In this document: in pieces, positions 11,173 through 44,076 of the stretch | How positions within the stretch are numbered: position 1 is the first letter of the stretch | Layout of the letters: every line of letters starts with the position of its first letter | Virus record (IMG/VR): IMGVR_UViG_3300035180_000343 | Span: 65,322 to 129,321 of that record | Length of the DNA: 64,000 nucleotides | Reading direction: 5' to 3' (one strand) | DNA from: a virus | Position numbers and translations under genes: made by a program | Notes under the pieces: generated by a model | Databases searched by the model: none | Told to the model about the DNA's origin: nothing | Seen by the model: only the letters and a program-made list of their open reading frames with translations

Positions 11173-11523
11173 TTATTGGTTTTTTGGTTGATCGTTAGAT
11201 TCTGGAGCAACTGGAGCAGCCACTTCTGGAGCAACTGGAGCAGCCACTTCTGGAGCCACTGGAGCAGCCACTTCTGGAGCCACTGGAGCAGCCGCCACTT
11301 CTGGAGTCGCATTGGGGTTTGAAGGTTCAACTTTTTCGACTTCAGCTTTAACTTCTTCTACAACCTTTTCAACTTCAGCTTTAACTTCTTCAACAACTTG
11401 TTCCATATACTTTGCCATATCAGGCACAGCTATCAACAGCTCTCCAGTGATACGATGTCTCCATCCTTCTTCAGACTTAACTGCATCTTTACACCATTCT
11501 GGTGCTTTGTCGTAAATAGACAT
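11173..11523 (-). CDS. late hypothetical protein with APVAPEVA repeats
   Basis: ATAAATA and aggag upstream; paralog of 11551..11805. Confidence 0.7.
   Translation of the reverse strand: MSIYDKAPEWCKDAVKSEEGWRHRITGELLIAVPDMAKYMEQVVEEVKAEVEKVVEEVKAEVEKVEPSNPNATPEVAAAPVAPEVAAPVAPEVAAPVAPEVAAPVAPESNDQPKNQ
11201..11306. repeat. 24-bp coding tandem repeat, about 4.3 copies
   Basis: tctggagc(a/c)actggagcagccact units. Confidence 0.95.
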
Positions 11524-11550: not shown

Positions 11551-11805
11551 TTATTTATCTACAACATCCGTTGCTTTTGGCGTAGACTTCTTAGTTCTTG
11601 GTTTCTTAACTACCAGTGGTTTTTCTTCAACAGTCTCAACTACCAGTGGTTTTTCTTCAACAGTCTCGACTGTCTCAACTACTTCCATATACTTATCCAT
11701 TTCTGGAACAGAAATTAAGAGTTCCCCTGTAACATGATGTGCCCACCCTTTAGGTGTCTTGACCGCATTTTTGCACCAATGTGGTGCTTCATCATAAACA
11801 GACAT
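11551..11805 (-). CDS. late hypothetical protein, tandem paralog
   Basis: MSVYDEAPHWCKNAV vs MSIYDKAPEWCKDAV; 33-bp internal duplication. Confidence 0.7.
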   Translation of the reverse strand: MSVYDEAPHWCKNAVKTPKGWAHHVTGELLISVPEMDKYMEVVETVETVEEKPLVVETVEEKPLVVKKPRTKKSTPKATDVVDK

Positions 11806-11840
11806 ACTTTTCTCCTGGCTAATGATTTTGTTTTATTTAT

Positions 11841-13263
11841 CAGATGGCACCGTAAAACCTTGGCCTTTATGTCAGGGATATAAGGCGTGTTTTTAACTTG
11901 TTCCAAGTATATATTAGTAAAACCATTTTGTCAAGTGCTTTGACAATAATGAGTTCGTCAAAGTTGAACAATTATATAAATATACGTATATGAAACAATT
12001 ACTCGCATACAAATATCGGATTTATCCAACAAAGGATCAAGAAATCCTCTTGAGCAAAACCTTTGGTTGTAAGAGAGTAATCTTCAACCATTACCTAGAA
12101 GTGCAGCAAACCAGATACAAAAACAAAGAACCTCGGTTAAGCAATTTCGACATCAACAAAGACATCACCAAGTTAAAAGATGAAAAGGAATGGTTGAGGG
12201 AAGTCGATATAAACGCACTACAAGCGGCGGCGGGAGATTTGTCTGTTGCATATGACAATTTCTTCAAGTCGGTTACTGGTAAGAGAAAAGGTCCGAAGAT
12301 TTCTCCACCGAAGTTCAAGAACAAAAATTCTAGACAGTCGTATAGGACTCGTAATGTTCGCGTCAATGAAGACGGTTCTTTACAGATACCAAAACTAAAG
12401 TCAGTCAAAGCAGCCATCCACAGAGAAATTCCAGAAGGATCGATAATTAAATCGGCGACCATATCAAGGAACCCAGATGGAAGATATTACGCATCAATAT
12501 TAGTTGAAACAGAAGTAGCATTGCAGCCAATGACAGGTAAAGAAGTCGGTTGCGATTTAGGTCTCAAGGATTTGTTAATCACTTCAAGTGGTATAAAATT
12601 CAAAAGACCCGATGATTTACCAAACATTGCGAGAACCAAGCAATTGTTGAAGTTGAAGCAAAGACAGTTCGCAAGAACCGTTAAAGGTAGCAAAAATCAC
12701 GAATCGTTAAGACTTCAAGTAGCACGACTTTATTCGAAGAGCACAAGACAAAGAAATGAATATTATCATCTAGTTAGCAGATACTTGGTTGATAATTACG
12801 ATTCTATCTACGTCGAAGACTTGTCGAGTAAAAATATGTTACAGAATAGGAAGTTGAGTCGAGCGATTCATGAAGTGGCTTGGACAACTTTGTCCAATAT
12901 GATTTCATATAAATCATCTTGGGCTGGTAAAACTTATCATCAAATCGATCGTTGGTATCCAAGTAGCAAGACCTGTAGCTCTTGTGGTCATAAGCTCGAG
13001 AAACTTGATCTTGGCACTAGAGAATGGACTTGTCCGTCTTGTGGAACTCATCATGATCGTGATTTAAATGCTGCTATGAACATTCTTCATGTCGGTCAAG
13101 CCGACTGCTACGGAGAAGAAATGAAGTCGCAAGCAACAGGCGACTTGGGACTAGAGATCCCAGTGGCCCTACAGAAAATGACCATTAAAATCGAGAGATC
13201 CAACGCTACGTTGGTTGGTCATGGGAGTGGGCAAGCTACGTCCTTTAGGGCGTGGTAGTTGAC
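11841..13263 (+). mobile_element. IS200/IS605-family tnpB-only (IS1341-like) element, copy 1
   Basis: TTTAT|CAGATGG left end; right-end hairpin ending GTAGTTGAC; no tnpA. Confidence 0.9.
11990..13258 (+). CDS. tnpB: TnpB RNA-guided nuclease
   Basis: AYKYRIYPT, GCDLG (RuvC-I), VEDL (RuvC-II), CxxC-CxxC, HDRDLNAA (RuvC-III). Confidence 0.97.
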   Translation: MKQLLAYKYRIYPTKDQEILLSKTFGCKRVIFNHYLEVQQTRYKNKEPRLSNFDINKDITKLKDEKEWLREVDINALQAAAGDLSVAYDNFFKSVTGKRKGPKISPPKFKNKNSRQSYRTRNVRVNEDGSLQIPKLKSVKAAIHREIPEGSIIKSATISRNPDGRYYASILVETEVALQPMTGKEVGCDLGLKDLLITSSGIKFKRPDDLPNIARTKQLLKLKQRQFARTVKGSKNHESLRLQVARLYSKSTRQRNEYYHLVSRYLVDNYDSIYVEDLSSKNMLQNRKLSRAIHEVAWTTLSNMISYKSSWAGKTYHQIDRWYPSSKTCSSCGHKLEKLDLGTREWTCPSCGTHHDRDLNAAMNILHVGQADCYGEEMKSQATGDLGLEIPVALQKMTIKIERSNATLVGHGSGQATSFRAW

Positions 13264-13294
13264 CATAAATTGACATTTTGATTCTCCTATATCT

Positions 13295-14122
13295 TCAATG
13301 TTTTTTCGGTTTAGCAGTTTCCATCCGCTTAAGAGTTGTTTGCCACAACTTTCTAAACTTCCCACGAACAACTCCACCTCTAGCAAACGACAAGATTTGC
13401 TTTGACGCAAACCGATTCGACGATGACGTAGATTTCGATTTATCCCAAATTTGCTTCAATGATTTATATGGCAACCCAGTTATTTTTACAAGTTTTGCTA
13501 CTTCTGGATTTGTTCGTCCTTCTTCAATGAAATCTCCGTCTATCGAATCTTGAACCATCTCGTCAATTAAATCCGCAAGCGCCAATTCATTTTCTTCTAG
13601 AATTGTCCGGAGTTCTTCAAAGAGTTTCTTAGCAGATGTAGCAGTCGCCGTCGACGGACACATCGACTTAAATAACTGGAAATTATTTGTTTTGACTGCT
13701 TCTCTTGATTTGGTTGCGCTAACGTCTTCGTCTGTTCTTGGGGACTGGATGATTTCAACTTTTGTAAATCCTTTGTCAGTGGCCCACTTTTCAAGACTCT
13801 TAGCATAACCACCAGTAGCTTGATCTTCACCAACAACTATATATAATTGGGTATATCCGAGTTCTTTTAACGCTGTTACCATTTTAAATGGATCTCGGAT
13901 TTTATCGTTTTCAATGACTGTTATGTTTTTAAAGAATGTCTTGACCCATTTGACCTTGGAATTGAAATCCAATGGATTTTTCTTGTTATCTTGTGTATGC
14001 GAAAGACAAAGTATTGGATCCCCGTTGACTTTCTTTGCAGTCTCGACCGCAAGATTTACAAGTTTTTCGTGTCCGGATGTCGGGGGATTAAACCTCCCAA
14101 AGATTGCAACTGCTGTTTTCAT
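13295..14122 (-). CDS. HIGH-motif cytidylyltransferase-like protein
   Basis: FGRFNPPTSGHEKL, VVGED, VSAT. Confidence 0.85.
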   Translation of the reverse strand: MKTAVAIFGRFNPPTSGHEKLVNLAVETAKKVNGDPILCLSHTQDNKKNPLDFNSKVKWVKTFFKNITVIENDKIRDPFKMVTALKELGYTQLYIVVGEDQATGGYAKSLEKWATDKGFTKVEIIQSPRTDEDVSATKSREAVKTNNFQLFKSMCPSTATATSAKKLFEELRTILEENELALADLIDEMVQDSIDGDFIEEGRTNPEVAKLVKITGLPYKSLKQIWDKSKSTSSSNRFASKQILSFARGGVVRGKFRKLWQTTLKRMETAKPKKH

Positions 14123-14622
14123 TGTTCCAGTTCCGAGTAAAGAAGTCTAGGTCTAAACGAAAAACTATCGACCCCAACATCTAAGAGTTTCCTATGTGTT
14201 TTGGTATTTGTGCCATGGCAATGACCATGCAAAAACAAATCAATTTCATCCCCAATCTTTTCAATATCTTTTGGATCGATTGGACGATGTGACATGAAGA
14301 ATGTGTTACCACCAACTTCTATTGTTGCACAATCCTGAATCTCAACCCATTCTAAATCAAGTGTTTTCTTCTTATCATGGTTCCCGATAATAAGAACCTT
14401 TTGTCCGTTCAATCTAGAAAATATTTCGGAATTCAGTTCGGTAGAAATTCCACATGAAAAATCCCCTAGATGAAACACCAGATCATCTGGTGATATCGAT
14501 TCATTCCATCGTTGGATCATAGTTTCGTTCATTTCTTCCGATGTTTCGAATGGACGATTGCAGTATTTAATGATATTCCGATGCCCAAAATGTGTATCCG
14601 ACGTAACCCAAATTTTACTCAT
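14119..14622 (-). CDS. calcineurin-like metallophosphoesterase
   Basis: SDTHFGH, HLGDF, GNHD, HGHCH. Confidence 0.92.
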   Translation of the reverse strand: MSKIWVTSDTHFGHRNIIKYCNRPFETSEEMNETMIQRWNESISPDDLVFHLGDFSCGISTELNSEIFSRLNGQKVLIIGNHDKKKTLDLEWVEIQDCATIEVGGNTFFMSHRPIDPKDIEKIGDEIDLFLHGHCHGTNTKTHRKLLDVGVDSFSFRPRLLYSELEQ

Positions 14623-14623
14623 C

Positions 14624-15523
14624 TCAAACCTTTCTTTTAGAGTCTTTAAACTCTTTCGTCGTTACTTTAAGAGATTTGCCATTGATCGCAAGGACAATCC
14701 CTTCAATTTCTTTTCCAAACTTATCTTTTCCGTCGATATCAGCATTTAGAATCAACGTCGCAAGGTCTTCTTTTACTTTATTGACAATAGCAAGCAAATT
14801 CTCTTTTTGAATTTTGTCGGCTGCTTTTCTACTTTTCAAAATTTCTATATGAGAATCATCAAAATTGACTAGAGGATCAATAGTAGCATTTATATCCAAT
14901 GAGTCTATTTTCATTGAAGTATCGGCAAATTTAATTTTATCATTGCTAAACTTGAACAAATTTTTCTTTATAGACTCTTGTTGATCTTTTGGCAACTGTT
15001 CGCCAGTTGAAGCAACAACAAAATCAATTGGAAAAATAGTCATCAAACTTCCGAGTTTTGTCTTGTCATATTTTATAGTGACAAACGTAATCCCAGTGTC
15101 GTCTTCGGTTGCCATTGGGTTATAAAATATCTCACATATAAGTTTAACGTCATTTGGGATTGCTGTCAAGAAGTCTGCCGATTTAAAAATGTCAAACATA
15201 TCGTCATAGTGTTGAGCACGGATAACAATTTCGTCCTTTGCTCCTTTTGCTTTTGCATGAGTCGAGAATGCTTTTGGTTCAAATATCGGACCAGTTCTTG
15301 ACCCCTCAACAAACACTTTTCCGTCTTTGTTTTTTCCAATACGAAATCCTAGTCCGTCTACTTTCAATGATACCGGAATATCTTTTAAAACCCCACCTAA
15401 TTCAGATTTAAACGATTTTACGAGGGAGATGAATTCTTCCGGTTTCATCGCTTGTAGATGTTCCATTGTAGTTCGTTTTGTCTGGACTACGTCTTCATAA
15501 ATGAACTGTCGAAATGTTTTCAA
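14624..15523 (-). CDS. ligase-fold nucleotidyltransferase-like protein, putative internal head protein
   Basis: KVDG and EGIV...K motifs; N-terminus MKTFRQFIYE. Confidence 0.6.
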   Translation of the reverse strand: MKTFRQFIYEDVVQTKRTTMEHLQAMKPEEFISLVKSFKSELGGVLKDIPVSLKVDGLGFRIGKNKDGKVFVEGSRTGPIFEPKAFSTHAKAKGAKDEIVIRAQHYDDMFDIFKSADFLTAIPNDVKLICEIFYNPMATEDDTGITFVTIKYDKTKLGSLMTIFPIDFVVASTGEQLPKDQQESIKKNLFKFSNDKIKFADTSMKIDSLDINATIDPLVNFDDSHIEILKSRKAADKIQKENLLAIVNKVKEDLATLILNADIDGKDKFGKEIEGIVLAINGKSLKVTTKEFKDSKRKV

Positions 15524-16767
15524 AGTTGAAACCCCATCTTGTCTGCGGCGCGGCCATCGAGTGACCCTCTAACCTGATACGATTTTGACCTAAGATATAC
15601 TCTTGAGGACGACATATTATTCAATAAATCTTTTCCAGTTAAAACTTCCCATTTTGGGATACCAGTTGCGCCAATGTCTAGTTTTACATAAACTAAATCG
15701 GATGACAATGCATCTGAAATAAATGGTCTAAAATCTAACCTTGGGTCGGTTTTCGAATAAGTCTCAATCAATTGTCCAACTACTTGACTCAGCCCAATTG
15801 TTGTAATGCCCTTATTCCAAAAATCAATCTTGGATGGGTCAACTGATTCAATCCACTTCATTGCCGCATACGGAATGAGTTCATCTTTTCTCGCGTTCTT
15901 TTGAACCCACGAAGAATCAAATGTCTTGAACTCTTTGAACTTCATTTCTTTCAGATATTCCCCAGCTTTTATAGGACCAACCCAAGCAGTATTTGACTCG
16001 ATCTCCCGAATTATATTCGTCATTGGATCATTAAACCACTTCGACTTCTTATCTAACATTGAAAGAAGATCGGAACCCTTGACGGTATTTGTATGTTTTG
16101 CTGCAGTCTTTGCAGATACATTTATTACGCCAGTTGACTCAATAATATAGTCGAGCAATGGTTCGTTTGGTCTTTTTGGAAATTCAACGATTGAATATTT
16201 GTTGGCAACCTTTCCGATTGTTGCAAACATATCATTTTCAACAATTGCAATCGGTCCGAGACATTCTCCAAAGTCCTTCATCACTGATGCGATGTCAATA
16301 TTCTTTCTATGTTCTTTGAAAAAATCAACCAACGTGGAATTTGGAATTTTGCCCAATTGATGAGAAATTAACATTGAACAATAAGACCCAGTCATTCCTA
16401 ATTTTAACTCGTTTGTATTTCCTTGTAAAGTCTCGACATATTTTGGATATTTCAGGGGTTGAGTTAGACCAAACTTATCGGGTTTCAGAACATTTTGAGG
16501 AAGACGAGTTGACGTCACTTCGATTTTCATAACAATGAATTCGGTTGGGCTTATTTCGATATATCCTTTGGATGATTTCAAAATGCCGGACCCGTTTGTT
16601 TTTCTCTTCCATTTTGGGTTGTGATCTAGAAGTGTGGTGATTGCTCCCGCTCGTTGTGCATTCGGCAAGAATATATGATAAACCGTCTTCTTAGGTCTTC
16701 CTTGTGTCAGAACAGAAATATCAGACGCACCAGTGATTTCTTTTAGCTCTTCAACAAAATCTTTCAC
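15520..16767 (-). CDS. hypothetical protein, possible PD-(D/E)xK nuclease fold
   Basis: FGE..GP...FP..PNEPLLD...VSAK pattern. Confidence 0.45.
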   Translation of the reverse strand: MKDFVEELKEITGASDISVLTQGRPKKTVYHIFLPNAQRAGAITTLLDHNPKWKRKTNGSGILKSSKGYIEISPTEFIVMKIEVTSTRLPQNVLKPDKFGLTQPLKYPKYVETLQGNTNELKLGMTGSYCSMLISHQLGKIPNSTLVDFFKEHRKNIDIASVMKDFGECLGPIAIVENDMFATIGKVANKYSIVEFPKRPNEPLLDYIIESTGVINVSAKTAAKHTNTVKGSDLLSMLDKKSKWFNDPMTNIIREIESNTAWVGPIKAGEYLKEMKFKEFKTFDSSWVQKNARKDELIPYAAMKWIESVDPSKIDFWNKGITTIGLSQVVGQLIETYSKTDPRLDFRPFISDALSSDLVYVKLDIGATGIPKWEVLTGKDLLNNMSSSRVYLRSKSYQVRGSLDGRAADKMGFQL

Positions 16768-17873
16768 TTGTACCTCGCGTAGAAGGATTTCTTCATTTCG
16801 TCGAAGTCTTTAACGGATCCACCGAGTTTCTTAGTTAGAACGCTAATCATCGCATTCTTCTCATCGAGATCCTTGTCTGGATCTCCACGGTATAGTCCCT
16901 GTGCCGAATCTCCCCAGAGTGTATAAGCAAACCCAGTAACAATCGGCTTCCATGTGGACTTCGGAAGATTTTTTTGAATGAGGTCGATAAGTCCCGTGAA
17001 ACTACTAAATTGTTTGAGCTCGTCCGAAGATGGAGAATGTCCAAACCATTCTTTAAATACGAAATCTAGATCAGTGTTGCCAGGAGATTCTGTTGTCGAC
17101 ATTTCTCTATAATGTGGAATGTCGTTTGTCTTTATTTGTTTTCCAGAATCATCTTTGATTGGGGAAAGTTTGGTTCGTAGCCCACCAGTAACACTGAATG
17201 CGCGCTCACTTGAAAGGATTTCTTTATCTTTCCCTCTAGACGTCTTTGCTGGAATCAAAACCTTCTTAAGATTTGGAGCTTCCATTGCGCGCAGAAGATA
17301 TTTGTGAGCAACTCCCTTAATACCTTGCTCCATATCTTCCCATGCTGAGGAATGACTAAACTGTGCCCATGGCGTCGGTTTGCCAGTTTTGTCGAATTCT
17401 ACCAACTCCATATCAATCTGAATGTTGGTATCATATGGAACAAGTGTCCATAGAGTGATAAATTGTCCAGCCGATTTCTTATATCCAACGAATGTCAACG
17501 GGCCAAATGTTTCACCTTCGATACCAGAATTCAAGAATTTTTCAACAAACGGTTCAAGGTTGCCATCGACTTGAGTGTCAATATCTCCAACCGACTGTTT
17601 CACTTTAGAAAACTTTTCGTCTTCAATTTTCTTCAAGTCAAAGAAATGAAATGCAGAACCAGAAAGAAATTCTTTAGACTTGAAAAGAGAATCGTTCCAC
17701 AAATAAAGACCAGTCGACTTCGAAAATGCTTTATTGATTTCAGACAATCCCTTATCAATAACAGGGACGATTTCTTTTCTTGATAGTTTTGTCAGGTCAA
17801 TTCGTTGTGCTTCGGCGTCTCCCAAACGAACATTTCCACCTTCTGAAACGAACTTTCTAAAACTTTTTAACAC
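16764..17873 (-). CDS. pol-beta-type nucleotidyltransferase-like protein, putative internal head protein
   Basis: LSGS...GDID motif; probable GTG start gives MLKSFRKFVSE. Confidence 0.6.
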   Translation of the reverse strand: MLKSFRKFVSEGGNVRLGDAEAQRIDLTKLSRKEIVPVIDKGLSEINKAFSKSTGLYLWNDSLFKSKEFLSGSAFHFFDLKKIEDEKFSKVKQSVGDIDTQVDGNLEPFVEKFLNSGIEGETFGPLTFVGYKKSAGQFITLWTLVPYDTNIQIDMELVEFDKTGKPTPWAQFSHSSAWEDMEQGIKGVAHKYLLRAMEAPNLKKVLIPAKTSRGKDKEILSSERAFSVTGGLRTKLSPIKDDSGKQIKTNDIPHYREMSTTESPGNTDLDFVFKEWFGHSPSSDELKQFSSFTGLIDLIQKNLPKSTWKPIVTGFAYTLWGDSAQGLYRGDPDKDLDEKNAMISVLTKKLGGSVKDFDEMKKSFYARYK

Positions 17874-17906
17874 GAGATTTCCACCCAAAGTAATTTCCTT
17901 ATCGTG

Positions 17907-18659
17907 TTATTTATGGACATTTCGATACTTGACAATCATATCGATCATAACTTGTTCGTCTTGGTTTGGATTCTCACACTTTAAATAGGAATCCATTAAA
18001 TCATTTGCAAACTTGGATGTGCTTGGATCGACTTTATAAACTTCGTCAATTCCATTCAACTTCATTACGAGAAACCGTTTGACGCATTGTTTACATTCGC
18101 CACATGGGACTCCATCATTATGCCAACAACTTGTAGTTTCTTTCAGTTCTGGAATGATTTCTTTTCCGAATGTCTCGATAGCCCATTTTACGGTGTCAAC
18201 CTTTGACATCTTCTCTTCGACGAACGGAAACCTAACTTTACATCCATTGATGAATGGAGATAGCACATATGACAATACTTCCGAAGTCATTGCCCTAAAC
18301 TTTTCATTCTTGTCGGTTGCTTGTTCGTTGTCCTCGTCAAACAATGTCCCCATCCATACTTCATCTGGAAGTTCTTGGCTTGCGGCCAGAGTAGCAAATA
18401 CAAGATTCCTTCCAGGAATATAGATAGCAGATGCAAACGGATCAGACTTCTTGGACACGGGACGAATACCAGCTGGAGATAACCAATCAATAGTTCGAAT
18501 CTCAACATATTCTGGAAGTCGGTCAATCTCAACCTCTTCGGAATCTGCTCCATGTGCATAGTAAATACACTTTACATCCGCATCTGGATAATTCTTCTCG
18601 GCATATTTCTTCATCAGGAAACTGTCCAACCCACCACTATACAAAATCACAATCTTCAT
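17907..18659 (-). CDS. queC: 7-cyano-7-deazaguanine synthase QueC
   Basis: YSGGLDS, YIPGRN, SCW...CGECKQC. Confidence 0.9.
   Translation of the reverse strand: MKIVILYSGGLDSFLMKKYAEKNYPDADVKCIYYAHGADSEEVEIDRLPEYVEIRTIDWLSPAGIRPVSKKSDPFASAIYIPGRNLVFATLAASQELPDEVWMGTLFDEDNEQATDKNEKFRAMTSEVLSYVLSPFINGCKVRFPFVEEKMSKVDTVKWAIETFGKEIIPELKETTSCWHNDGVPCGECKQCVKRFLVMKLNGIDEVYKVDPSTSKFANDLMDSYLKCENPNQDEQVMIDMIVKYRNVHK
17908..17915 (-). promoter_or_regulatory. T4-type late promoter
   Basis: CATAAATA about 35 nt upstream of the NTase start. Confidence 0.6.
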
Positions 18660-18678
18660 TTGGAATCCTTAAAAATAA

Positions 18679-19065
18679 TCATTTGTGCCTTACGTTCTCT
18701 TTAGTAACCAAATCGTGCACAATTCTAACAACTTTTACGTCAGGACACAACCTTTCAATTTCGTCGGCCTGGATTGGGTCGTCTTCGTAGTGAATTACTA
18801 TTTTCATGTCAAAAATAGAGTTCAACAGATTGATGGTTTTTCCTTTATGAGTCCCAGACGACAATCTACTCTTTTTGTCGAATGGAAGTGGATTGAAGAA
18901 GGGGTAATTCATAATCCCCCTACTCTTCAACATCGCTATCGTTTCTGGAATTTCTTCAAACGACCTTCCAGTGATAATGACATCGTTTTCTCTTGGAGTT
19001 AATCCAGGATATTCTCCCATGAAAATAACTCCGTCAATGTCATAACTCGCAATAGGATCATTCAT
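18679..19065 (-). CDS. HAD-superfamily phosphatase
   Basis: YDIDG, ITGR, K, YEDD motifs; overlaps ino1 stop. Confidence 0.8.
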   Translation of the reverse strand: MNDPIASYDIDGVIFMGEYPGLTPRENDVIITGRSFEEIPETIAMLKSRGIMNYPFFNPLPFDKKSRLSSGTHKGKTINLLNSIFDMKIVIHYEDDPIQADEIERLCPDVKVVRIVHDLVTKENVRHK

Positions 19066-20344: not shown

Positions 20345-20363
20345 ACAATTTCCTTCATTATAT

Positions 20364-21790
20364 CAGTTAGTGCCATAAAATCTTGGTCTTTAGGCCAAAA
20401 ATATAAGGCGTGGTTTTCAACTTGTTTTAATAGTGTATATTAGTGGAATGATTTTGTCAAGTGCTTTGACAAAATTATTTCGTCAAAGTTGAACAATTAT
20501 ATAAATACGTAATATGAAACAATTTATCTCGTACAAATATCGGATTTATCCAACAGAAGACCAACAAGTTCTTCTGAGTAAAACCTTTGGCTGTAAACGA
20601 GCGATTTTCAACCATTACCTTGAAATACAGGAAACTCGATTTAAAAACAAAGAACCTCGGTTAAGCAATTTCGACATCAATAAAGACATTACCAAACTGA
20701 AGAAAGAAAAGGAATGGCTATATGAAGTTGATAATGCTGCATTACAATCTTCTGCTGAAGACTTAACAAAAGCATACGACAATTTCTTCAAGTCGGTTAC
20801 TGGTAAGAGAAAAGGTCCGAAGATATCTCCACCGAAGTTCAAGAACAAGAATTCGCGCCAATCATATAGAACTCACTACGTTCACGTTAATGAAGACGGA
20901 ACACTGCATATTCCGAAACTAAAGTCAGTCAAAGCAGCCATCCACAGAGAAATTCCAGAAGGATCGAAAATTAAATCGGCGACCGTTTCAAGAAATCCTG
21001 ACGGAAGATATTATGCATCAATTTTAGTAGAAACAGAAGTAACATCAAGGCCGATGACCTATCGGGAAGTCGGTTGCGATTTAGGTCTCAAGGATTTGTT
21101 AATTACCTCAAGTGGTATAAAATTCAAGAGGCCAGATGAATTGCCGAACATTGCGAGAACCAAGCAATTATTGAAGTTGAAGCAAAAACAGTTCGCGAGA
21201 ACCGTTAAAGGTAGCAAAAATCACGAATCTTTAAGACTCCAAGTAGCACGGCTTTATTCGAAGAGCACAAGACAAAGAAACGAATATTATCATCTAGTTA
21301 GTAGATACTTGGTTGATAATTACGATTCTATCTACGTTGAAGACTTGTCGAGTAAAAATATGTTACAAAACAGGAAGTTGAGTCGAGCAATCCACGAAGT
21401 GGCGTGGTCAACCTTGTCTGGGATGATCCAGTACAAATCATCTTGGGCTGGTAAAACTTATCATCGGATTGATCGTTGGTATCCAAGTAGCAAGACTTGC
21501 TCTTCTTGTGGTCATAAACTTGAAACACTTGACCTCGGCACCAGAGAATGGACTTGTCCGAACTGTGGAACTCATCATGACCGTGATTTAAATGCTGCTA
21601 TGAACATTCTTCATGTCGGACAATCCGACTGTTATGGAGAAGCAATAAAGTCGCATGCAATAGGCGACTTGGGACTAGAAATCCCATCGGCCCTACAGAA
21701 AATGACCATTAAAATCGAGAGATCCAATGCTAATGTGTTGGTTGGTCATGGGAGTGGGCAAGCCGCGTCCTTTAGGAAGCGGTAGTTGAC
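20364..21790 (+). mobile_element. IS200/IS605-family tnpB-only element, copy 2
   Basis: TATAT|CAG left end; right end GGTAGTTGAC. Confidence 0.9.
20514..21785 (+). CDS. tnpB: TnpB RNA-guided nuclease
   Basis: RuvC D/E/D intact, zinc finger. Confidence 0.97.
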   Translation: MKQFISYKYRIYPTEDQQVLLSKTFGCKRAIFNHYLEIQETRFKNKEPRLSNFDINKDITKLKKEKEWLYEVDNAALQSSAEDLTKAYDNFFKSVTGKRKGPKISPPKFKNKNSRQSYRTHYVHVNEDGTLHIPKLKSVKAAIHREIPEGSKIKSATVSRNPDGRYYASILVETEVTSRPMTYREVGCDLGLKDLLITSSGIKFKRPDELPNIARTKQLLKLKQKQFARTVKGSKNHESLRLQVARLYSKSTRQRNEYYHLVSRYLVDNYDSIYVEDLSSKNMLQNRKLSRAIHEVAWSTLSGMIQYKSSWAGKTYHRIDRWYPSSKTCSSCGHKLETLDLGTREWTCPNCGTHHDRDLNAAMNILHVGQSDCYGEAIKSHAIGDLGLEIPSALQKMTIKIERSNANVLVGHGSGQAASFRKR

Positions 21791-21795
21791 CAAGC

Positions 21796-23067
21796 TCAAA
21801 AGAAACTACTGATGTCGACTTGCTTTTCTTTCACTGCAACTGATTTCATTGACGATTTAAAAATGTTCGACCATTCGTCAAAATCTGTTTTTGTATCTAC
21901 ATCTTGAAACGAACGATACATCGAAAACTTTTTCATGTCAACAACATCCTCAAGTCTTGGAGCAGACAAGAATGTTTTTATAGCTTCCAACAATGCCAAA
22001 CTCGATGTAACAGCAAATGCCGTCCATACTCTAACAATCTCATTCTTATCTTTTCCAGCAGCAATATGTTTTTCGTTGCTGCTGTTGATTACATTGTGTA
22101 GGTGCTTTGGGCTATGGACTCCATCCAACTGGTCTATCTCTTTGATTTTGTTGAATATTTTTTCATATGCTACTTGGTCATAATGCCGTCCAAATGAAAA
22201 TTGATTTTGGTCTGGACCGTCCGCAACATAAAAACAACCTTTTGTGATTCCACTTGTATGAGATGTCGAATCGAAACTTAAAATAACATCTGAATTTCTA
22301 CCATCTCTAAAGCATACCAAGTTTGGTACGAGCCGACGCATTGATCCAACACCCAAAAGGTGAATCTGTTTGTTTTTTAGATTATATTTTCGAAGTATTT
22401 GGAAACTAGCGAATGTTCGAACAAAGGATTCATATTCTCCATTTCCAAGTGAGGTTGAACCAAGAGAAATTCCACCTAAGTAGTCATGATAATCTGGGGG
22501 AAGTTCGTTCAGAATAATATCCGCCCATTGTAAAAAAGTGTCGACATCATTTCCCTGAACAATCATCAATGGTTTGCTAACTGTTCCGAATTCTCTAAAG
22601 GCGTCGATTTGCTCTTTCAGATTAGCTGCCGAATCCTTCGCACACTTTACGAAAATATCCTTATCGAAGAATCTGTCACCAGTGCTACCAATCTTTGAGG
22701 AAGCAGTTGGGGTATAAAGAGGAATCTCGTCAAACGACATCGCAATTGTTGAGTTCTTTGCTTGAGACTCATATATTTTTCGCTTGATGCCAGAGTCAAT
22801 CTTCGACCCACGAGTGATAATTTGAAGACCGCCAGAATCAGCATGAATATCACAAATTACATCTCGTAGATATTTGTTCAGTACATCTCCTCCCGATTTT
22901 TCCGTAAATGCGTTATATAACATTCCAAGAGAATATCCTTTTGCCTTTACCTTTTTGAATAAATTGCGAAGGAACTCGGTATTCTCTTCTGTATAAGACG
23001 AATTCATCAAGAGTTTTGGATATCCAACTCCAGACATAATGTAGTGGAACCGATCAACATCAACCAT
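21796..23067 (-). CDS. dpdA: TGT-fold DNA 7-deazaguanine transglycosylase (DpdA/DpdA2-like)
   Basis: HADSGGLQ, MSFDEIP, HLLGVG, SFDSTS; fused stop/start with folE. Confidence 0.8.
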   Translation of the reverse strand: MVDVDRFHYIMSGVGYPKLLMNSSYTEENTEFLRNLFKKVKAKGYSLGMLYNAFTEKSGGDVLNKYLRDVICDIHADSGGLQIITRGSKIDSGIKRKIYESQAKNSTIAMSFDEIPLYTPTASSKIGSTGDRFFDKDIFVKCAKDSAANLKEQIDAFREFGTVSKPLMIVQGNDVDTFLQWADIILNELPPDYHDYLGGISLGSTSLGNGEYESFVRTFASFQILRKYNLKNKQIHLLGVGSMRRLVPNLVCFRDGRNSDVILSFDSTSHTSGITKGCFYVADGPDQNQFSFGRHYDQVAYEKIFNKIKEIDQLDGVHSPKHLHNVINSSNEKHIAAGKDKNEIVRVWTAFAVTSSLALLEAIKTFLSAPRLEDVVDMKKFSMYRSFQDVDTKTDFDEWSNIFKSSMKSVAVKEKQVDISSFF

Positions 23068-23744
23068 TATTTTTGCCTTGCTAAAGAAAGAAATTCTTGT
23101 CGAGCACTTGGATTATCTCTAAACGCACCCGACAAGAAACTTGTCGATGTTGTTGCTCCAGTTGACTCAACACCTCTCCATGAAACGCAAAAATGTTCAC
23201 ATTCCATTACAACGGCGACATCGTCTGTCTCACAAATAAATTTTACTGTTTCACCAATCTGTTGGGTCTGAAGTTCTTGGAGTGTCGGGCGGCGAGAAAA
23301 ATATTCAACAATTCGTGGGAGTTTAGATAGTCCCAATGCAATATTCTTGGGCTTATAAGCAATTGTGCATGTTCCAACAATCGGAACAATATGATGAGAG
23401 CAGCTACTTTTCACTGGAATATTATGCTCGATAACAATCTCATCATAATGGTGGTCATTTGGAAACCCAGTACACTTGGGGAAATTTTCGGGTTTCAGAC
23501 CCCACATTGTTTCTTTAACTAACATCTTCGCAACTCGTTTTGGAGTGTCAACATGGGATGGGTTTGTCATATCCATACCAATAGTCGTCAACATTTCCAA
23601 AACATTCTGTTGAATTTTCTCAATTTTTTCATCGTCTGGAACATTTAACATTGCTTCATCTACCGCACTTTCGAGGTGCAAAGATTTTAAATGTTGAAGA
23701 ACCTTCAATCCAAGAACTGGATCACATTTCGTTGATTGTAGCAT
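23067..23744 (-). CDS. folE: GTP cyclohydrolase I
   Basis: DTPKRVAK, CSHH, GLSKLPR, LQE, HFCVSWRG. Confidence 0.95.
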   Translation of the reverse strand: MLQSTKCDPVLGLKVLQHLKSLHLESAVDEAMLNVPDDEKIEKIQQNVLEMLTTIGMDMTNPSHVDTPKRVAKMLVKETMWGLKPENFPKCTGFPNDHHYDEIVIEHNIPVKSSCSHHIVPIVGTCTIAYKPKNIALGLSKLPRIVEYFSRRPTLQELQTQQIGETVKFICETDDVAVVMECEHFCVSWRGVESTGATTSTSFLSGAFRDNPSARQEFLSLARQK

Positions 23745-23828
23745 TCGAGTTTCCTTTTTGTTTTCGAATTTAAATTGTAACTTAAACTTGAGGAATTGTC
23801 AAGTCCTCATACCTACTTATGCGAGGTT

Positions 23829-25664
23829 TTACACCTCAATTGATGAGAAATCTTTCTTCTTTTTCAATGTGCTAAATCCACTTGGGCCACTTTTTTCTTC
23901 TTTTTCGTCTGGACTTCCCTTCTCGAGTATTCTACCGTTAGCAGGTTGATCGACGTTGTAGAGAAGCATCTTTGCCCGATCAACTCCGACAACGAATCTC
24001 TTGTTCATCACTGGATCGGAAAACCGATTCTTCAACTGCTTAAACATAATCATGTTCTGTTCATCAAGTGCTTCGGTTCTAATGATAGCAAATATTGCAT
24101 CTGCAATCATTGCTGTTCCGAACGAATCTGAGATTTCGGTGATTTCCGAATCGGAATTATTGTTACCAGATCTGGAGAACTGTGTACTACTTATAATCGG
24201 AACATTAAATTCAATTGCCAACCCACGCAATTCTTCTGCAATCGATTTTACCATACTATAACTATTAACATTATTCCCTGCTTTATATCGAACAGACGAC
24301 ATAATATTAACATAATCAACCATTATAATATCTGGAACAAATTCTTGTTTCAATTGAAGGTCATTTAGAAGTGCTCGAAAATGTGCAACATTTGCGCCAG
24401 CAGTTGGATATTCTTTAACCACCATCTTTCCAGTTATTGTTGGCAGAACCTCGGACATTCGTTGAACATATTTTTCCTTTGACCACTTCTCAAGCTCGCC
24501 AAGATTCGTTTGCAAAAGATTTGCGTCAATACGTTCGAGGATGCGTTCTTCAGCCATCTCTAGTGTGATATAAAGAACATTTTTCCCAGACTTGATATAA
24601 GACGATGCGAGGCTACATTTTACCATGCTTTTGCCAGCATTGGTATTATGTGAGCTAACATTTTCTGTCCAGTATCTATGATTAGGATGGTCAATTACAA
24701 CGTCAACAATTGGAATTCGATTCCCCGTCTTTTGTATTACGTATTCCGTTCGATATCCAGATTTTGTTAGAATATTTAGATGGGGAATATTATTCGCGTC
24801 AAGATCAAGCAGTTCTTTTGCAGAAAACCACCCAGATACAGTTTCGAATAAATGATTCTCATTACACCTAATCAAGTGACCGTCTATTTGGAGGATATAT
24901 TCGTCCCATATCCCCTTATCAACATATTCCGCAATCGGAACCCATCCATCGGGCGAGTCAATTTCAACATCGGAATTATTCATCAACTGTTGAATTCTAC
25001 CAACCGTTGAGTTCAACTCGTGCCAATGTTGCGTAGACTTTTGTCGAGTTCTAATCTTAACTTTAGTATCTGGATGAACACAACCCGCTATTAGCAACGT
25101 CAATGTTTTCTTAGGCAATCCACCACCGGTAATGGTATTGAGCATGTCGATATCAAACGGAATTCGAACCGATTCCGCATGCAACTTCTCAAACCGTTCT
25201 TCAACGTCAGTTAATGACTGCCCAACCGATTTATTAAAAGATACTGATAATGCATCTTTTAGAATATCCGGAAGTTGATCTCGGCTTTGTTCTTCGTCGT
25301 TAATAATTTCAATACATTTTAGAACAGAATTATAAACACTTCGTTCTTTAATCCAGGCTTCGGCGTGTTCGACTAACCATGCCTGGCTTGGCTCCTTAAT
25401 TCTCGATGATGCAACCTCAGCAAGGACGCACTCCGCTTGTGTTACAGAATCTTCTGAAAGTTTATTGTTCGTTCGTAAAGAAACAATAATCTCATCTTTT
25501 GACGGCAGAACATTGTATTTAGAAACAAACTCGTCCACTGCTTTGAAAACAGTTTTTTTGCTTGTTTCTGTGAAATATTCCTCCTTCAAAAAAGGAAGAA
25601 CATGCTTAGCAAAGTCTGGGTTAAAGAAGAGACCATGTAAAACTTGCTCTTCGATTCCAGACAT
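23829..25664 (-). CDS. 41: replicative helicase gp41 with mini-intein
   Basis: TGGGLP, split P-loop AG|TNAGKS, TLEMAEE, VDY, SDSFG. Confidence 0.95.
   Translation of the reverse strand: MSGIEEQVLHGLFFNPDFAKHVLPFLKEEYFTETSKKTVFKAVDEFVSKYNVLPSKDEIIVSLRTNNKLSEDSVTQAECVLAEVASSRIKEPSQAWLVEHAEAWIKERSVYNSVLKCIEIINDEEQSRDQLPDILKDALSVSFNKSVGQSLTDVEERFEKLHAESVRIPFDIDMLNTITGGGLPKKTLTLLIAGCVHPDTKVKIRTRQKSTQHWHELNSTVGRIQQLMNNSDVEIDSPDGWVPIAEYVDKGIWDEYILQIDGHLIRCNENHLFETVSGWFSAKELLDLDANNIPHLNILTKSGYRTEYVIQKTGNRIPIVDVVIDHPNHRYWTENVSSHNTNAGKSMVKCSLASSYIKSGKNVLYITLEMAEERILERIDANLLQTNLGELEKWSKEKYVQRMSEVLPTITGKMVVKEYPTAGANVAHFRALLNDLQLKQEFVPDIIMVDYVNIMSSVRYKAGNNVNSYSMVKSIAEELRGLAIEFNVPIISSTQFSRSGNNNSDSEITEISDSFGTAMIADAIFAIIRTEALDEQNMIMFKQLKNRFSDPVMNKRFVVGVDRAKMLLYNVDQPANGRILEKGSPDEKEEKSGPSGFSTLKKKKDFSSIEV
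24645..25082 (-). other. 146-aa mini-intein in helicase P-loop
   Basis: CVHPDT...SSHN|T; no endonuclease domain. Confidence 0.92.
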
Positions 25665-26017
25665 TATTCTTCCTCATTGATGAATTTAGTGGATTCAAGC
25701 AGATGTTTGAGTACGATATCATAAATGATATCTTGAATTTTCAATTTAATATCGCCTTCCAATTCAACATCTTCTTCGTCCAAATTAAATGTATTGTATT
25801 CAAAACTCAAGACACCGTCTTTCAACTCAAATGTTTTAGAGTTAAGTTTGACCAAGACTTTCTCGTCCTCTAACGCAATTAAGATATCTTGATCCAACGA
25901 AGAAATTGCATACTTAACGTTTGCTAATTTATCATCAACTGCCTTTATAAGTTCGTCGATGGAGGTAATGTTTTCATAAGAGTTACTCATTCGTTGTCTC
26001 CTCTGGTTGGGCCTCAT
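25664..26017 (-). CDS. hypothetical protein at the T4 gp40 position
   Basis: between uvsX and gp41. Confidence 0.6.
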   Translation of the reverse strand: MRPNQRRQRMSNSYENITSIDELIKAVDDKLANVKYAISSLDQDILIALEDEKVLVKLNSKTFELKDGVLSFEYNTFNLDEEDVELEGDIKLKIQDIIYDIVLKHLLESTKFINEEE

Positions 26018-27047
26018 CTGTATCTACTTCTCCTGCACCATAACAAAACAATGGTTTCATTTTCTCATTGATGAGATCCAATATTTCCTTTGTAAAATAC
26101 TTCTCGGGGTCTCGATTTATTTGCGTTCCAAACACCTTTCTACCATCTGGGAGAACAAGCCGAGTCGAATCCTTCTTGAAGACTCCACATTTTTCCGCAA
26201 TATCAACTAAACCATAGTATCGTTGTAGGCCGGTGTCGTGCCGAATCAAGACGGAAACCTCTGCTCCAGTCTTAGTCAACCTAGATTTATAAAGATTCGC
26301 GCGAATATTCAATCCAACCAGTTGGCCATCTTCTTTCTCTTTGCGCTTGTTCAGGATAACAATTGTCGATGCCGCATACTTGACACCACTTCCACCACCT
26401 ATCTCGGCTGGACTATACATATCAAAAACGGCGTAGACATGGTTGGTCAAAATCATCGGGACTTTTGCTTGTGCCAGCTTCAGTGTTAAAATCCTGAATG
26501 CTCCCTTAATAAGCTGCGTCCGAGTCATGTCTTTTACATCTTTTCCCTCTGTAGTATCCTTTACCTCTTTATTAGTCGACAACATGCCAAGAGAATCTAG
26601 AACAAACAACATTCGTGGCCGAGATTCCTTCTTTGCTTCGATATATTTGTCAAGAATCCTAACTGCCTGAGTCCGAAAGTCTTCAACTGTTGCAACTGGA
26701 ATAATGAATATGCGCTTTGAATCAATCCCACGACTTTCAATATCTTCCTTTGTAATTGCACCTTCTGATTCAAAATAAAAGCAAGCAGAATCGGGATGTG
26801 CTTCCAAGAAGTTTTTTGTTCCAGTCAAGACCGCAAAAGATTTTCCCGAGGCTTCCTCACCAGCTAAAGCAGTCACTTTCCCAACTGGATATCCTTTGTA
26901 AATATCCCCAGAAATCAAAGCATTGAGCGCATATGAACCAGAGTCGATATATTCCGTTATATCCCCACTCATTACACCGTCACATACTGCTTGTGCCATG
27001 TTGTTCTTTGTTTCTTTTACCAAACTATTCCATAGTGCGTCACTCAT
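25983..27047 (-). CDS. uvsX: RecA-like recombinase UvsX
   Basis: DSGSYALN, AGEEASGKS, LDSLG, GGGSG. Confidence 0.95.
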   Translation of the reverse strand: MSDALWNSLVKETKNNMAQAVCDGVMSGDITEYIDSGSYALNALISGDIYKGYPVGKVTALAGEEASGKSFAVLTGTKNFLEAHPDSACFYFESEGAITKEDIESRGIDSKRIFIIPVATVEDFRTQAVRILDKYIEAKKESRPRMLFVLDSLGMLSTNKEVKDTTEGKDVKDMTRTQLIKGAFRILTLKLAQAKVPMILTNHVYAVFDMYSPAEIGGGSGVKYAASTIVILNKRKEKEDGQLVGLNIRANLYKSRLTKTGAEVSVLIRHDTGLQRYYGLVDIAEKCGVFKKDSTRLVLPDGRKVFGTQINRDPEKYFTKEILDLINEKMKPLFCYGAGEVDTDEAQPEETTNE

Positions 27048-27104
27048 AGTTACATCCTTCTTGTAAAATTTGAAGTATAACGGATTCTTTTCGAAAAGTC
27101 AAGA

Positions 27105-27138
27105 GACAAAAACAAGAATGAGGCCGAAGCCTCATTCT
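27105..27138 (-). terminator. intrinsic terminator with UUCG loop
   Basis: AGAATGAGGC-TTCG-GCCTCATTCT then U-run. Confidence 0.85.
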
Positions 27139-27156
27139 GTTTGGTTGGATTGTTGG

Positions 27157-27441
27157 TTAGCCGACAACGTAAGCATTAACTTTTCCGTCAGTATAACCTG
27201 TAACTGTTGCCATCATTTTCGGATATTTGTCCGTTAGAGATAACTTGGCAATTGGAGCCGCCGGAGTTGTCGAGCATGTTCCAAGAGGTAACCAATTCAC
27301 TCCAGTAACAGATCCGTAGAAGGTTACCGTGCTTGTTCCAACATTCTCGACGACAAACGTACCATCCATTTCTAATAGTGCTTCAATTACTGCCGAATCG
27401 TTCAACGTCGAAGAGTTTTCAAAAAACTTTCTAACTTTCAT
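27157..27441 (-). CDS. late hypothetical (putative virion) protein
   Basis: ATAAATA and aagga upstream. Confidence 0.65.
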   Translation of the reverse strand: MKVRKFFENSSTLNDSAVIEALLEMDGTFVVENVGTSTVTFYGSVTGVNWLPLGTCSTTPAAPIAKLSLTDKYPKMMATVTGYTDGKVNAYVVG

Positions 27442-27468
27442 GATTTATTCCTTCAAAACCATATTTAT

Positions 27469-28893
27469 CAGGTGGCGCCGTAAAACCTTGGCCTTCAGGC
27501 CAGGGATATAAGGCGTGCTTTTTAACTCGTTCCAATAGTATATGTTAGTGAAACCATTTTGTCAAGTGCTTCGACGAAATAATTTCATCAGAATTAAATA
27601 ATTGTATAAATACGTATATGAAACAATTACTCGCATTCAAATATCGGATTTACCCGACAAAGGATCAAGAAATCCTCTTGAGTAAAACCTTTGGCTGCAA
27701 GCGAGCAATCTTCAATCATTACCTAGAAGTGCAGCAAACCAGATACAAAAACAAAGAACCTCGGTTAAGCAATTTCGACATCAACAAAGACATCACCAAA
27801 CTAAAAGATGAGAAGGAATGGTTAAGGGAAGTCGATTCGGTTGCTCTACAATCTTCTGCTGAAGATCTAACAAAAGCATATGACAATTTCTTCAAATCCG
27901 TAACTGGTAAAAGAAAAGGTCCAAAGATTTCGCCACCGAAGTTCAAGAACAAGAATTCACGTCAGTCGTATCGAACTCGTAATGTTCGAATTAATGAAGA
28001 CGGTTCGTTACAAATACCGAAACTAAAGTCAGTCAAAGCAGCCATCCATAGAGAAATCCCAGAAGGATCGGTGATCAAGACAACGACCATTTCGAGGAAT
28101 CCAGATGGAAGATATTATGCATCAATTTTAGTAGAAACAGAAGTAGCACTGCAACCAATGACCCATAGGGAAGTCGGTTGCGACCTCGGGTTAAAGGATT
28201 TGCTTATCACCTCAAGAGGTATAAAATTTAAAAGACCAGATGAATTACCGAACATTGCGAGAACCAAGCAATTGTTAAAAGCAAAGCAAAAACAGTTCGC
28301 AAGAACTGAAAAGAGTAGCAAAAATCACGAATCTTTAAGACTTCAAGTGGCACGTTTATATTCAAAGGTCACCCGACAAAGAAATGAATATTATCATCTA
28401 GTTAGTAGATACTTGGTTGATAACTATGACTCCATCTATGTCGAAGACTTGTCGAGTAAGAACATGCTACAAAACAGGAAGTTGAGTCGAGCGATTCATG
28501 AGGTAGCTTGGTCAACCTTATCTGGGATGATCCAATATAAATCATCTTGGGCTGGTAAAACTTATCATCGGATTGATCGTTGGTACCCAAGCTCAAAGAC
28601 CTGTTCTAGTTGTGGTCATAAACTTGAAACACTTGACCTCGGCACCAGAGAATGGACTTGTCCAGATTGCGGAACTCATCATGATCGTGATTTGAATGCT
28701 GCTATGAACATTCTTCAGGTCGGTCAAGCCGACTGCTACGGAGAAGCAATAAAGTCGCATGCAATAGGCGACTTGGGAGAAATCCCATCGGCCCTACAGA
28801 AAATGATCATTAAAATCGAGAGATCCAATGTTGATACGTTGGTTGGTCATGGGAGTGGGCAAGCCGCGTCCTATAAAGGACGCGGTAGTTGAC
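27469..28893 (+). mobile_element. IS200/IS605-family tnpB-only element, copy 3
   Basis: TTTAT|CAGGTGG left end; right end GGTAGTTGAC. Confidence 0.9.
27618..28892 (+). CDS. tnpB: TnpB RNA-guided nuclease
   Basis: RuvC D/E/D intact, zinc finger. Confidence 0.97.
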   Translation: MKQLLAFKYRIYPTKDQEILLSKTFGCKRAIFNHYLEVQQTRYKNKEPRLSNFDINKDITKLKDEKEWLREVDSVALQSSAEDLTKAYDNFFKSVTGKRKGPKISPPKFKNKNSRQSYRTRNVRINEDGSLQIPKLKSVKAAIHREIPEGSVIKTTTISRNPDGRYYASILVETEVALQPMTHREVGCDLGLKDLLITSRGIKFKRPDELPNIARTKQLLKAKQKQFARTEKSSKNHESLRLQVARLYSKVTRQRNEYYHLVSRYLVDNYDSIYVEDLSSKNMLQNRKLSRAIHEVAWSTLSGMIQYKSSWAGKTYHRIDRWYPSSKTCSSCGHKLETLDLGTREWTCPDCGTHHDRDLNAAMNILQVGQADCYGEAIKSHAIGDLGEIPSALQKMIIKIERSNVDTLVGHGSGQAASYKGRGS

Positions 28894-39674: not shown

Positions 39675-40000
39675 GATCCAGCCACTTCTGTTGCCAAGCA
39701 GGCTGGTCGCTCCGAGTCTTAAATCAGTCTGCAATTAAGCAGCCAGACGAACCTCATATGTTGCGTCGTTAGACGCTTCCACGTTTGCATTTACTTCATT
39801 TGCTTCTTCAACTATCACGGCTTCTGCGTTGCCGATTCTCCAGTTATCTTAATCATCGCCAATCGATTCCAATTCAGCCCCATCGGAAATACAGACAATT
39901 GCGTCTATACTTCTGATGAGGTTGGTGGAGCTGGAGAGACTCGAACTCTCTTCTTGTTCGACTTTCGATAACCTTCACCGAATTCTTTAAATCAATTTGG
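39675..40000 (-). ncRNA. ssrA: circularly permuted (two-piece) tmRNA
   Basis: T-arm plus CAGCTCCACCA (ends 39923) lies upstream of 5' GGGGCTG (39881); G3:U70; tag ORF ANVEASNDATYEVRLAA* 39788-39735. Confidence 0.9.
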
Positions 40001-43393: not shown

Positions 43394-43428
43394 ATAAGCA
43401 GGTTCATCGAGAACCCTTCGATATTTAT

Positions 43429-44069: not shown

Positions 44070-44076
44070 TAAATTT

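Follow-up and report, generated by a model that had tools for sequence, protein, structure and literature searches.

Three tnpB genes, each preceded at its start codon by the T4-type late-promoter box TATAAATA, are present in a 64,000-nt stretch of viral DNA (bases 65322-129321 of the 129,321-bp IMG/VR virus record IMGVR_UViG_3300035180_000343, hereafter the window), and all three were confirmed to be intact and to lie within complete tnpB-only elements of the IS200/IS605 family of insertion sequences (IS). We interpret them as phage-adapted TnpB elements that would be transcribed from a gp55-type late promoter, translated from a leaderless message and spread in a homing-like manner, a joint reading to which we give a probability of roughly 0.55. 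This reading draws on the anatomy of the elements, the conservation of the box, the selection acting on the proteins and the presence/absence polymorphism of the insertions; from these we infer late timing, leaderless translation, cleavage and homing. In the proposed mechanism, a T4-type late box, (N)ATAAATA, would have replaced the bacterial signals (a sigma70 -10 element or a Shine-Dalgarno leader) in the phage TnpB clade, and gp55-RNA polymerase would start at the AUG or 1-2 nt before it. The tnpB mRNA would be made late, on replicating DNA, and its 3' end would carry the omegaRNA scaffold together with a guide equal to the flank; the resulting ribonucleoprotein would cut TTTAT-flanked IS-free alleles in co-infecting genomes, into which recombination-dependent replication would then copy the element. 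Harm to the phage would be limited by intergenic insertion, by keeping the late box of the flanking gene and by supplying an outward early promoter.

A probable late-promoter box at the tnpB start codon

The box is found at 11975-11982 (+), 7 nt before the ATG of copy 1 at 11990, at 20500-20507 (+), 6 nt before the ATG of copy 2, and at 27605-27612 (+), 5 nt before that of copy 3. These positions are exactly those given in the first-pass annotation, which had also reported the lack of a Shine-Dalgarno sequence; in agreement with this, no GGAG-like purine-rich stretch was found in the 5-7-nt spacers of the three copies. The ATG is the real start codon, since the Pfam HTH domain is matched from the first residue onward. 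Within the window TATAAATA is not enriched (4 found, 2.4 expected), and, the three copies being paralogous, they count as one observation, so that the weight rests on their relatives. Scanning viral contigs gave 21 loci whose products have 61-90% amino acid identity (L010 is the copy 3 site, and L019 and L030 are duplicates), and all 21 carry NATAAATA or CTAAATA 5-7 nt before the ATG, which brings the box to a position immediately before the ATG in 24 out of 24 phage-borne loci when the window copies are included. The first base of the box is T in 9 of these loci, C in 12 and G in one, two loci have CTAAATA, and the spacer measures 5 nt in 19 loci, 6 nt in two and 7 nt in three. In an alignment of 20 upstream regions (172 nt up to the first codons; L010, L019, L021 and L030 left out) the mean column identity was 35%, the seven box columns reached at least 90%, and box and open reading frame (ORF) start were the only well-conserved columns.

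The clade of the window TnpBs is known to date from phage contigs alone. Copy 1 had no megablast match among 50,697 phage records, and tblastn detected TnpB relatives in 231 phage records, all below 60% identity, so that no cultured carrier of this clade is known. TnpB relatives of the non-T4-like cultured phages FBKp34 and phiA009 have Shine-Dalgarno leaders; the one in Aeromonas phage phiA009 shares the TTTAT/CAG left end and its hairpin and has TTGACA-17-TAAACT and AAGGAGG before the ATG. For the bacterial comparison, one genome per prokaryotic species was scanned, which yielded 80 loci with at most 46% identity (35-46%); ten were left out for absence of the N-terminus or of upstream DNA, and in the 70 readable loci the box was never found within 22 nt of the start.

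The phage itself is T4-like, as judged by PHROG scans of the record (CheckV completeness 71%, GC content 39%). Matches covered replication and nucleotide metabolism (ribonucleotide reductase, UvsX, gp41-type helicase, gp32, gp43 polymerase, gp44/62, gp45, RegA and gp46/47) as well as structural functions (small terminase, tail sheath, tail tube, portal, prohead protease, scaffold, major capsid and baseplate proteins), and a simple ORF map places a structural block on the + strand at 3.9-57 kb of the record, followed by a - strand block that extends to its end. The late-transcription proteins gp55, gp33 and gp45, which the first-pass annotation had located in the window, were each matched by PHROG: a gp55-type late sigma factor (61701-62249, - strand; phrog_234, E 8.6e-45), a gp45-type sliding clamp (57495-58157, - strand; phrog_223, E 2.3e-60) and a gp33-like late-promoter co-activator (1269-1556, - strand; phrog_254, E 7.2e-12).

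TATAAATA occurs 14 times in the record, nine times on the + (coding) strand and once on the - strand of the structural block. In this block the tail sheath, scaffold and major capsid genes and a baseplate-wedge gene each have an intergenic box in front, followed by a leader of 22-52 nt and an AAGGAAG-like ribosome site. The arrangement ATAAATA-N4-7-ATG opens seven ORFs of at least 100 aa in the record; 200 second-order Markov simulations produced 0.015 such cases on average and never more than 1. The tnpB genes account for three of the seven, and the remaining four are native late-type genes coding for a gp2-like DNA end protector, an HNH homing endonuclease (between tail tube and portal), a helicase (adjoining uvsY) and the small terminase (G000:C1:3872-3885(+), 11195-11206(+) and 20583-20594(+); window 63593-63605(-)). 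In these four genes the box lies 4-6 nt before the start and no ribosome site is present, suggesting that this phage may regularly have late genes with a leaderless start. The closest native look-alike is the start of the small terminase gene (63177-63605, - strand; ATAAATA-cgtgt-ATG), where ATAAATAcgtgtATGAAAACA is nearly identical to ATAAATAcgtatATGAAACAA of the tnpB start. Moreover, a 29-nt stretch upstream of tnpB, with the box as its last part, shares 26 of 29 positions with the tail-sheath late promoter (E 3e-4). According to PMC1524935, the T4 late box spans -13 to -6 with a poorly conserved T at -13, and the late box of phage Aeh1 is CTAAATA; with a 5-nt spacer, +1 would thus fall on the first base of the ATG, and the box-to-ATG distances observed here fit this geometry. 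As the tnpB start signals copy those of phage late genes, tnpB is probably switched on late in infection. The first-pass annotation had proposed both late timing and homing; relatives, native genes and T4 geometry all favour the late-promoter part, and homing is kept here as a conditional step.

In the late promoters of the sheath, scaffold and capsid genes and in the tnpB promoter, (A/G)TCAAA is located exactly 18 nt before TATAAATA (G000:C1:8572-8600, 16092-16117 and 16973-16998; window 11954-11982), and distant tnpB copies keep GTCAAA 17 nt before the box. A role of GTCAAA as a -35 element 17-18 nt upstream of the late box was rejected because the distance is wrong for the + strand; read on the - strand it is TTGAC, which may belong to the outward promoter described below.

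The first-pass annotation had allowed that the box is simply an inherited -10 element. In its full form this explanation holds that the box is the element's own -10, read by host sigma70, that tnpB is expressed early or constitutively from a leaderless promoter derived from bacterial ancestors, and that the likeness to T4 is incidental. Bacterial relatives do often have TAnAAT 6-7 nt before the ATG (L033, L035, L041, L073 and L078), the TATAAA within the box matches five of the six positions of the sigma70 -10 consensus, and in one gene-less mini element (L112, see below) TATAATAA takes the place of TATAAATA, with TATAAT at the homologous place. The explanation is nevertheless improbable in our view: the 7-mer is missing from all 70 readable bacterial relatives, there is no -35 element, no TG extension and no hit of the sigma70-type scan overlapping the tnpB box on the + strand, a start at the AUG would put T instead of A at -11 (our own reading), and the same layout opens the four native late-type genes. 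In addition, the C, G and CTAAATA variants would weaken a -10 element, whereas first-base variation is tolerated in T4-like late boxes, as PMC1524935 describes.

Several of these and other observations speak against the late-promoter interpretation that we prefer. Besides the resemblance of TATAAA to a -10 element and the deviating L112 box, many of the 70 bacterial relatives have GGAGG or TAnAAT 6-7 nt before the ATG, so that the leaderless design is probably ancestral and the type of box is what changed. The phage TnpB clade may be monophyletic and derive from a single acquisition, in which case the conservation of the box shows constraint but not which sigma factor reads it. Furthermore, the A/U-rich start lacking a Shine-Dalgarno sequence could possibly be used for internal initiation on a longer transcript, and no RNA run was listed that contains the stretch. 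In the more distant carriers, box-plus-ATG starts exceed the control slightly or not at all (9 against 4 for G002, 6 against 2 for G005), TATAAATA precedes the capsid gene in one of three distant carrier phages (G004), and gp55-like matches, found in four of five, are weak (E 1e-9 to 1e-21). The box variant and the carrier's own late promoter were compared on carrier contigs that are mostly fragments.

Element anatomy, omegaRNA and selection

Element boundaries are sharp in an alignment of the three copies with their flanks. Copy 1 extends from 11841 to 13263 (+), as defined by the three-copy alignment, blast and right-end mapping, behind the candidate transposon-adjacent motif (TAM) TTTAT at 11836-11840; its tnpB gene (11990-13258, +) encodes 422 aa with RuvC residues D189, E276 and D358 intact. 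Copy 2 spans 20364-21790 (+) with TATAT at 20359-20363 and tnpB at 20514-21785 (423 aa), and copy 3 spans 27469-28893 (+) with TTTAT at 27464-27468 and tnpB at 27618-28892 (424 aa). All left ends begin with CAG directly 3' of TTTAT (copies 1 and 3) or TATAT (copy 2), all right ends read ...GGTAGTTGAC, 5 nt past the stop codon, and imperfect subterminal hairpins with covariation are found at both ends. Insertion is 3' of the short motif and, at the copy 3 site, seamless but for 2 nt, and, as is typical of IS200/IS605 elements, the ends have subterminal hairpins and no inverted repeats. The adjoining genes are all on the - strand and the elements occupy intergenic gaps; on this point the ORF map agrees with the first-pass annotation, which had described the elements as antisense to the phage genes. 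Neither Y1 TnpA (PF01797) nor serine-recombinase TnpA (PF00239) was matched in the whole 129,321-bp record (71% complete), so the absence of tnpA noted earlier for the window extends to the rest of this record. The elements are thus of the tnpB-only, non-autonomous IS200/IS605 form, which we take to be the IS1341-type group.

Each of the three proteins matched the Pfam domains HTH_OrfB_IS605, OrfB_IS605 and Cas12f1-like_TNB above the curated cut-offs, and the PHROG transposase match had E values of 1e-116 to 1e-118. D189, E276, D358 and four cysteines of the zinc ribbon do not vary among 21 aligned proteins (the three window copies and 18 of the 21 viral loci; L015, with a truncated ORF, and the duplicates L019 and L030 were left out), and the invariant columns align with ISDra2 TnpB (8bf8/8exa, E 2.9e-67), in which the triad presumably corresponds to the catalytic residues D191, E278 and D361. 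The intact RuvC triad of all three copies, as stated in the first-pass annotation, is thereby placed within a conserved set.

Inside each left end an outward-facing sigma70-type promoter is located on the - strand, among the best hits of the scan. In copy 1 it lies at 11906-11934 (-) (TTGACA-17-TATACT, 11 of 12 positions) and reads toward the flanking gene 11551-11805(-); its counterparts run from 20460 to 20432 in copy 2 (-; TTGACA-17-TACACT) and from 27565 to 27537 in copy 3 (-; TTGACA-17-TATACT). The gene flanking copy 1 forms a tandem pair of small paralogous genes with 11173-11523(-), both with the near-identical upstream arrangement ATAAATA-leader-AGGAGAAAAG-ATG, and copy 1 abuts the box of the second gene of this pair.

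The last approximately 140 nt of the elements share a fold of 54 predicted base pairs, 24 of which show compensatory changes among 20 sequences; no Rfam family was matched at gathering score. For copy 1, the predicted omegaRNA covers approximately 13125-13283 (+), with the scaffold up to 13263 and the guide in the flank CATAAATTGACATTTTGATT. Similarity ends at (G/A)TTGA(C/T), beyond which 20 right ends are followed by 20 different flanks, and these unrelated flanks would be the guides. Every guide of the record matches only its own flank in this genome, and as the 5' neighbour of that flank is the right end of the element and not a TAM, resident alleles are not self-targets. TTAT closes eight of the nine defined left junctions, TTTAT being the commonest form, which makes TTTAT a candidate TAM on the evidence of the junctions. 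QueC-, GTP cyclohydrolase-, QueD- and QueE-like genes (window 17907-18656, 23067-23741, 33534-34442 and 37754-38641, all on the - strand) suggest that the phage DNA carries a 7-deazaguanine modification; TTTAT, having no G, would escape it.

The three copies are paralogues with 86% nucleotide identity. Among eight close copies (28 pairs), the ratio of nonsynonymous to synonymous divergence (dN/dS) was 0.075-0.148 at dS 0.58-0.96, values by which the copies are old and the proteins under purifying selection, and at least 120 protein clusters of at least 74% identity were recovered from metagenomes (one relative, P0104, was sourced from NCBI). The elements could in principle be decaying passengers whose box and intact ORFs persist by chance or through recent arrival, an idea to which a remnant at 54186-54375, a scrap at 43422-43457 and the rearranged left end of the L017 element lend something. 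A dN/dS of about 0.1 at dS 0.6-0.9, catalytic residues invariant in 21 of 21 proteins, the 24 compensated omegaRNA pairs and the number of metagenome clusters make it very improbable.

Occupied and empty alleles

Copy 3 is absent from L111 and L112, two contigs 96% identical to the window. Their empty allele reads ...TATTTAT/ATTTAGCC..., and the window reads ...TATTTAT/[element]/GCTTAGCC...; the empty site equals the left flank joined to the right flank except for 2 nt. The insertion lies inside the TATAAATA box of gene 27157-27441(-): on the - strand of the empty allele a perfect TATAAATA precedes this gene, and the occupied form leaves GATAAATA. Metagenome contigs from runs X1 and X4 contain the empty joint 27468->28895, runs X2 and X3 contain a third allele in which the first 9 target bases are replaced by 18 others, and the occupied form is present as well. 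Presence and absence alleles thus occur in co-occurring, near-identical genomes, as would be looked for in a homing element. Conversely, five sites occupied in relatives are empty in the window record (L011, L012, L013, L016 and L017): the L011 element is located in the baseplate region, the L012 element after the capsid gene and the L013 element exactly beside the terminase box, together with a second, inverted copy, and the left end of the L017 element is rearranged. In L013 (2841-5211), approximately 370 bp of phage DNA adjoining the terminase gene lie between the two elements, which are inverted relative to each other.

The cytidyltransferase gene beside copy 1 gave no relatives in the viral contigs, so that a clean empty allele of the copy 1 site was not obtained; a single weak metagenome joint was seen there (11790->13266 plus 4 nt), the shorter side of which is only 28 nt. 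TTTAT/CATAAATTGAC, which the first-pass annotation had offered as an example, is a putative target. The copy 2 site was rejected as a simple insertion: L111 has an unrelated segment of approximately 110 nt there, and L112 has a mini element in the opposite orientation.

In all six occupied/empty pairs the 60-nt flanks are near-identical except for approximately 10-20 nt around the junction, and in all six the differences cluster at the junction, where the TAM is missing or the first target bases are changed. Such clustering would look like escape from a TAM-and-seed-dependent nuclease, the sample being small and other causes possible. A positional bias was also seen: four of four TTTAT junctions lie inside TATTTAT, the complement of the late box, compared with a background of 17 of 51 intergenic TTTAT in the record (p ~0.012, hand-calculated on a small sample).

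Homing into co-infecting genomes, as suggested by the known mechanism of TnpB and by this polymorphism, has its own difficulties. Known empty alleles mismatch the resident guides beside the TAM or lack the TAM, so that present-day homing into them may be inefficient; for copy 3, target positions 1-2 of the empty alleles read AT where the resident guide has GC, and these alleles may for this reason be poor targets. The copies also differ from each other by about 15% of their nucleotides, which implies that movement between sites is rare. These points bear on another explanation, in which late expression is real but TnpB keeps to its canonical role: when a host TnpA has, on rare occasions, excised the element, TnpB cuts the donor site again, whereupon a sister phage genome restores the element, and IS-free co-infecting phages are not invaded. 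The covarying IS200/IS605 hairpins at both ends mean that TnpA could act in trans, and the TAM-proximal mismatches of the empty alleles and the age of the copies, tied as they are to their sites, would be expected. We still judge it unlikely: no tnpA was found in 129 kb, so the element should seldom be excised within the phage; recutting by itself would hardly maintain purifying selection as strong as that on TnpB; samples contain occupied and empty alleles side by side; and the clustered TAM and seed differences look like past targeting. Homing-like spread is retained as part of the preferred joint reading.

Mini elements and relation to known systems

In addition to the three tnpB-bearing copies, the window contains a gene-less mini element of 286 nt (43108-43393, - strand; TAM CTTAT, guide TAAAATGGTTCGATGGAGAA), which consists of the left-end tip with its hairpin, an own TATAAATA, a hairpin and the complete omegaRNA/right end of approximately 150 nt. 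The box of the mini element runs from 43333 to 43326 (-), a position that is not homologous to that of the tnpB box. A remnant with the same deletion junction, from which the left-end tip is gone, lies at 54186-54375 (-). Several scraps are present as well, among them a solo left-end scrap with TATTTAT just before it at 43422-43457 (+). More copies of the mini element are present in L016, L112 and metagenome contigs, and its TATAAATA is kept in two of the three loci read (the window and L016) and in the loose-end consensus sequences of four out of four runs, which hints at a guide RNA driven by a late promoter. In L016 (5590-5625) the mini element is nested, in inverted orientation, in the left end of another element. 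At the late/early block junction of the phage, ATAAATAaccATG (G000:C1:57341-57365, +) resembles the mini-element box region ATAAATAaccATGtaatgacgag and may be another scrap or the start of a small RNA.

All of these features could be combined in a wider reading, which we put forward tentatively and regard as doubtful when taken as a whole, namely that the elements form a clade of RNA-guided homing elements specialised for T4-like phages. First, the gp55 late promoter would drive leaderless tnpB and the guide RNA, tying the nuclease to replicating phage DNA. Second, TTTAT, as the complement of the late-box core, would direct insertion into late promoters of the opposite strand, the box being rebuilt by the left tip. 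Third, the left end would give an early promoter to the gene cut off by the insertion. Fourth, the mini elements, with late box and omegaRNA, would provide extra guides in trans, as an analogue of a one-spacer CRISPR array. Fifth, the TAM and seed differences in empty alleles would be the traces of an arms race in which phage genomes with the element face phage genomes that lack it.

Cas12 descends from TnpB, which is also a compact genome editor and whose natural biology is known mainly from bacterial chromosomes with TnpA. The window elements share with ISDra2 and other tnpB-only IS200/IS605 elements the three Pfam domains, the RuvC triad, the zinc ribbon, a subterminal hairpin in each end and insertion downstream of a short T-rich motif, which is at the same time the TAM. 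They differ in that their TnpBs are only about 40% identical to solved TnpBs, in the lack of a TnpA partner in the record, in residing in a lytic T4-like phage, and in having a T4-type late box with no leader, in place of sigma70 and Shine-Dalgarno signals, and an outward early promoter in the left end. The mini element 43108-43393 keeps both ends and the whole omegaRNA and lacks tnpB, like the PATE-like non-autonomous IS200/IS605 elements to which we assume such gene-less omegaRNA mini-elements belong, but unlike these it carries its own TATAAATA. With TldRs, the nuclease-dead TnpB repressors of phages, the window TnpBs have in common a phage-carried TnpB-family protein and a guide RNA; TldRs are described as having lost RuvC activity and as residing in temperate phages, whereas the window TnpBs have an intact triad, a guide equal to their own flank and a T4-like host phage.

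A close analogy can be drawn with the homing endonuclease genes of T4 (I-TevI, I-TevII, I-TevIII and segB) and mobE of Aeh1. In PMC2988022 these are described as selfish genes between or within phage genes, with late promoters immediately upstream that restrict translation to late times, with cassettes that embed promoters serving downstream phage genes, and with the ability to invade alleles lacking the nuclease when phages co-infect. In the T4 enzymes the protein itself recognises the DNA, whereas the target of the window TnpBs would be set by an RNA guide and the TAM; T4 homing genes have hairpins that sequester the ribosome-binding site, whereas the window tnpB genes have no such site at all. 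In the literature searched, no description of the window arrangement was found among accounts of TnpB with phage late promoters, homing or co-infection, and in a 2026 review RNA-guided homing from one viral genome to another figures purely as a theoretical category (PMC13565253). A TnpB lineage that lives in lytic phages with no TnpA would provide a natural example of such homing. The system yields a candidate TAM, TTTAT, and natural guide/target pairs with and without mismatches, T4 late transcription offers a simple reporter test of the tnpB box, and the native, apparently leaderless late genes of this T4-like phage are of interest in their own right for the study of phage gene regulation.

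Among the other features of the window are a permuted (two-piece) tmRNA gene (39735-39983, - strand; Rfam RF04321, 79.9 bits) and three tRNA genes (Rfam RF00005) at 43995-44153 and 51914-51994 on the - strand.

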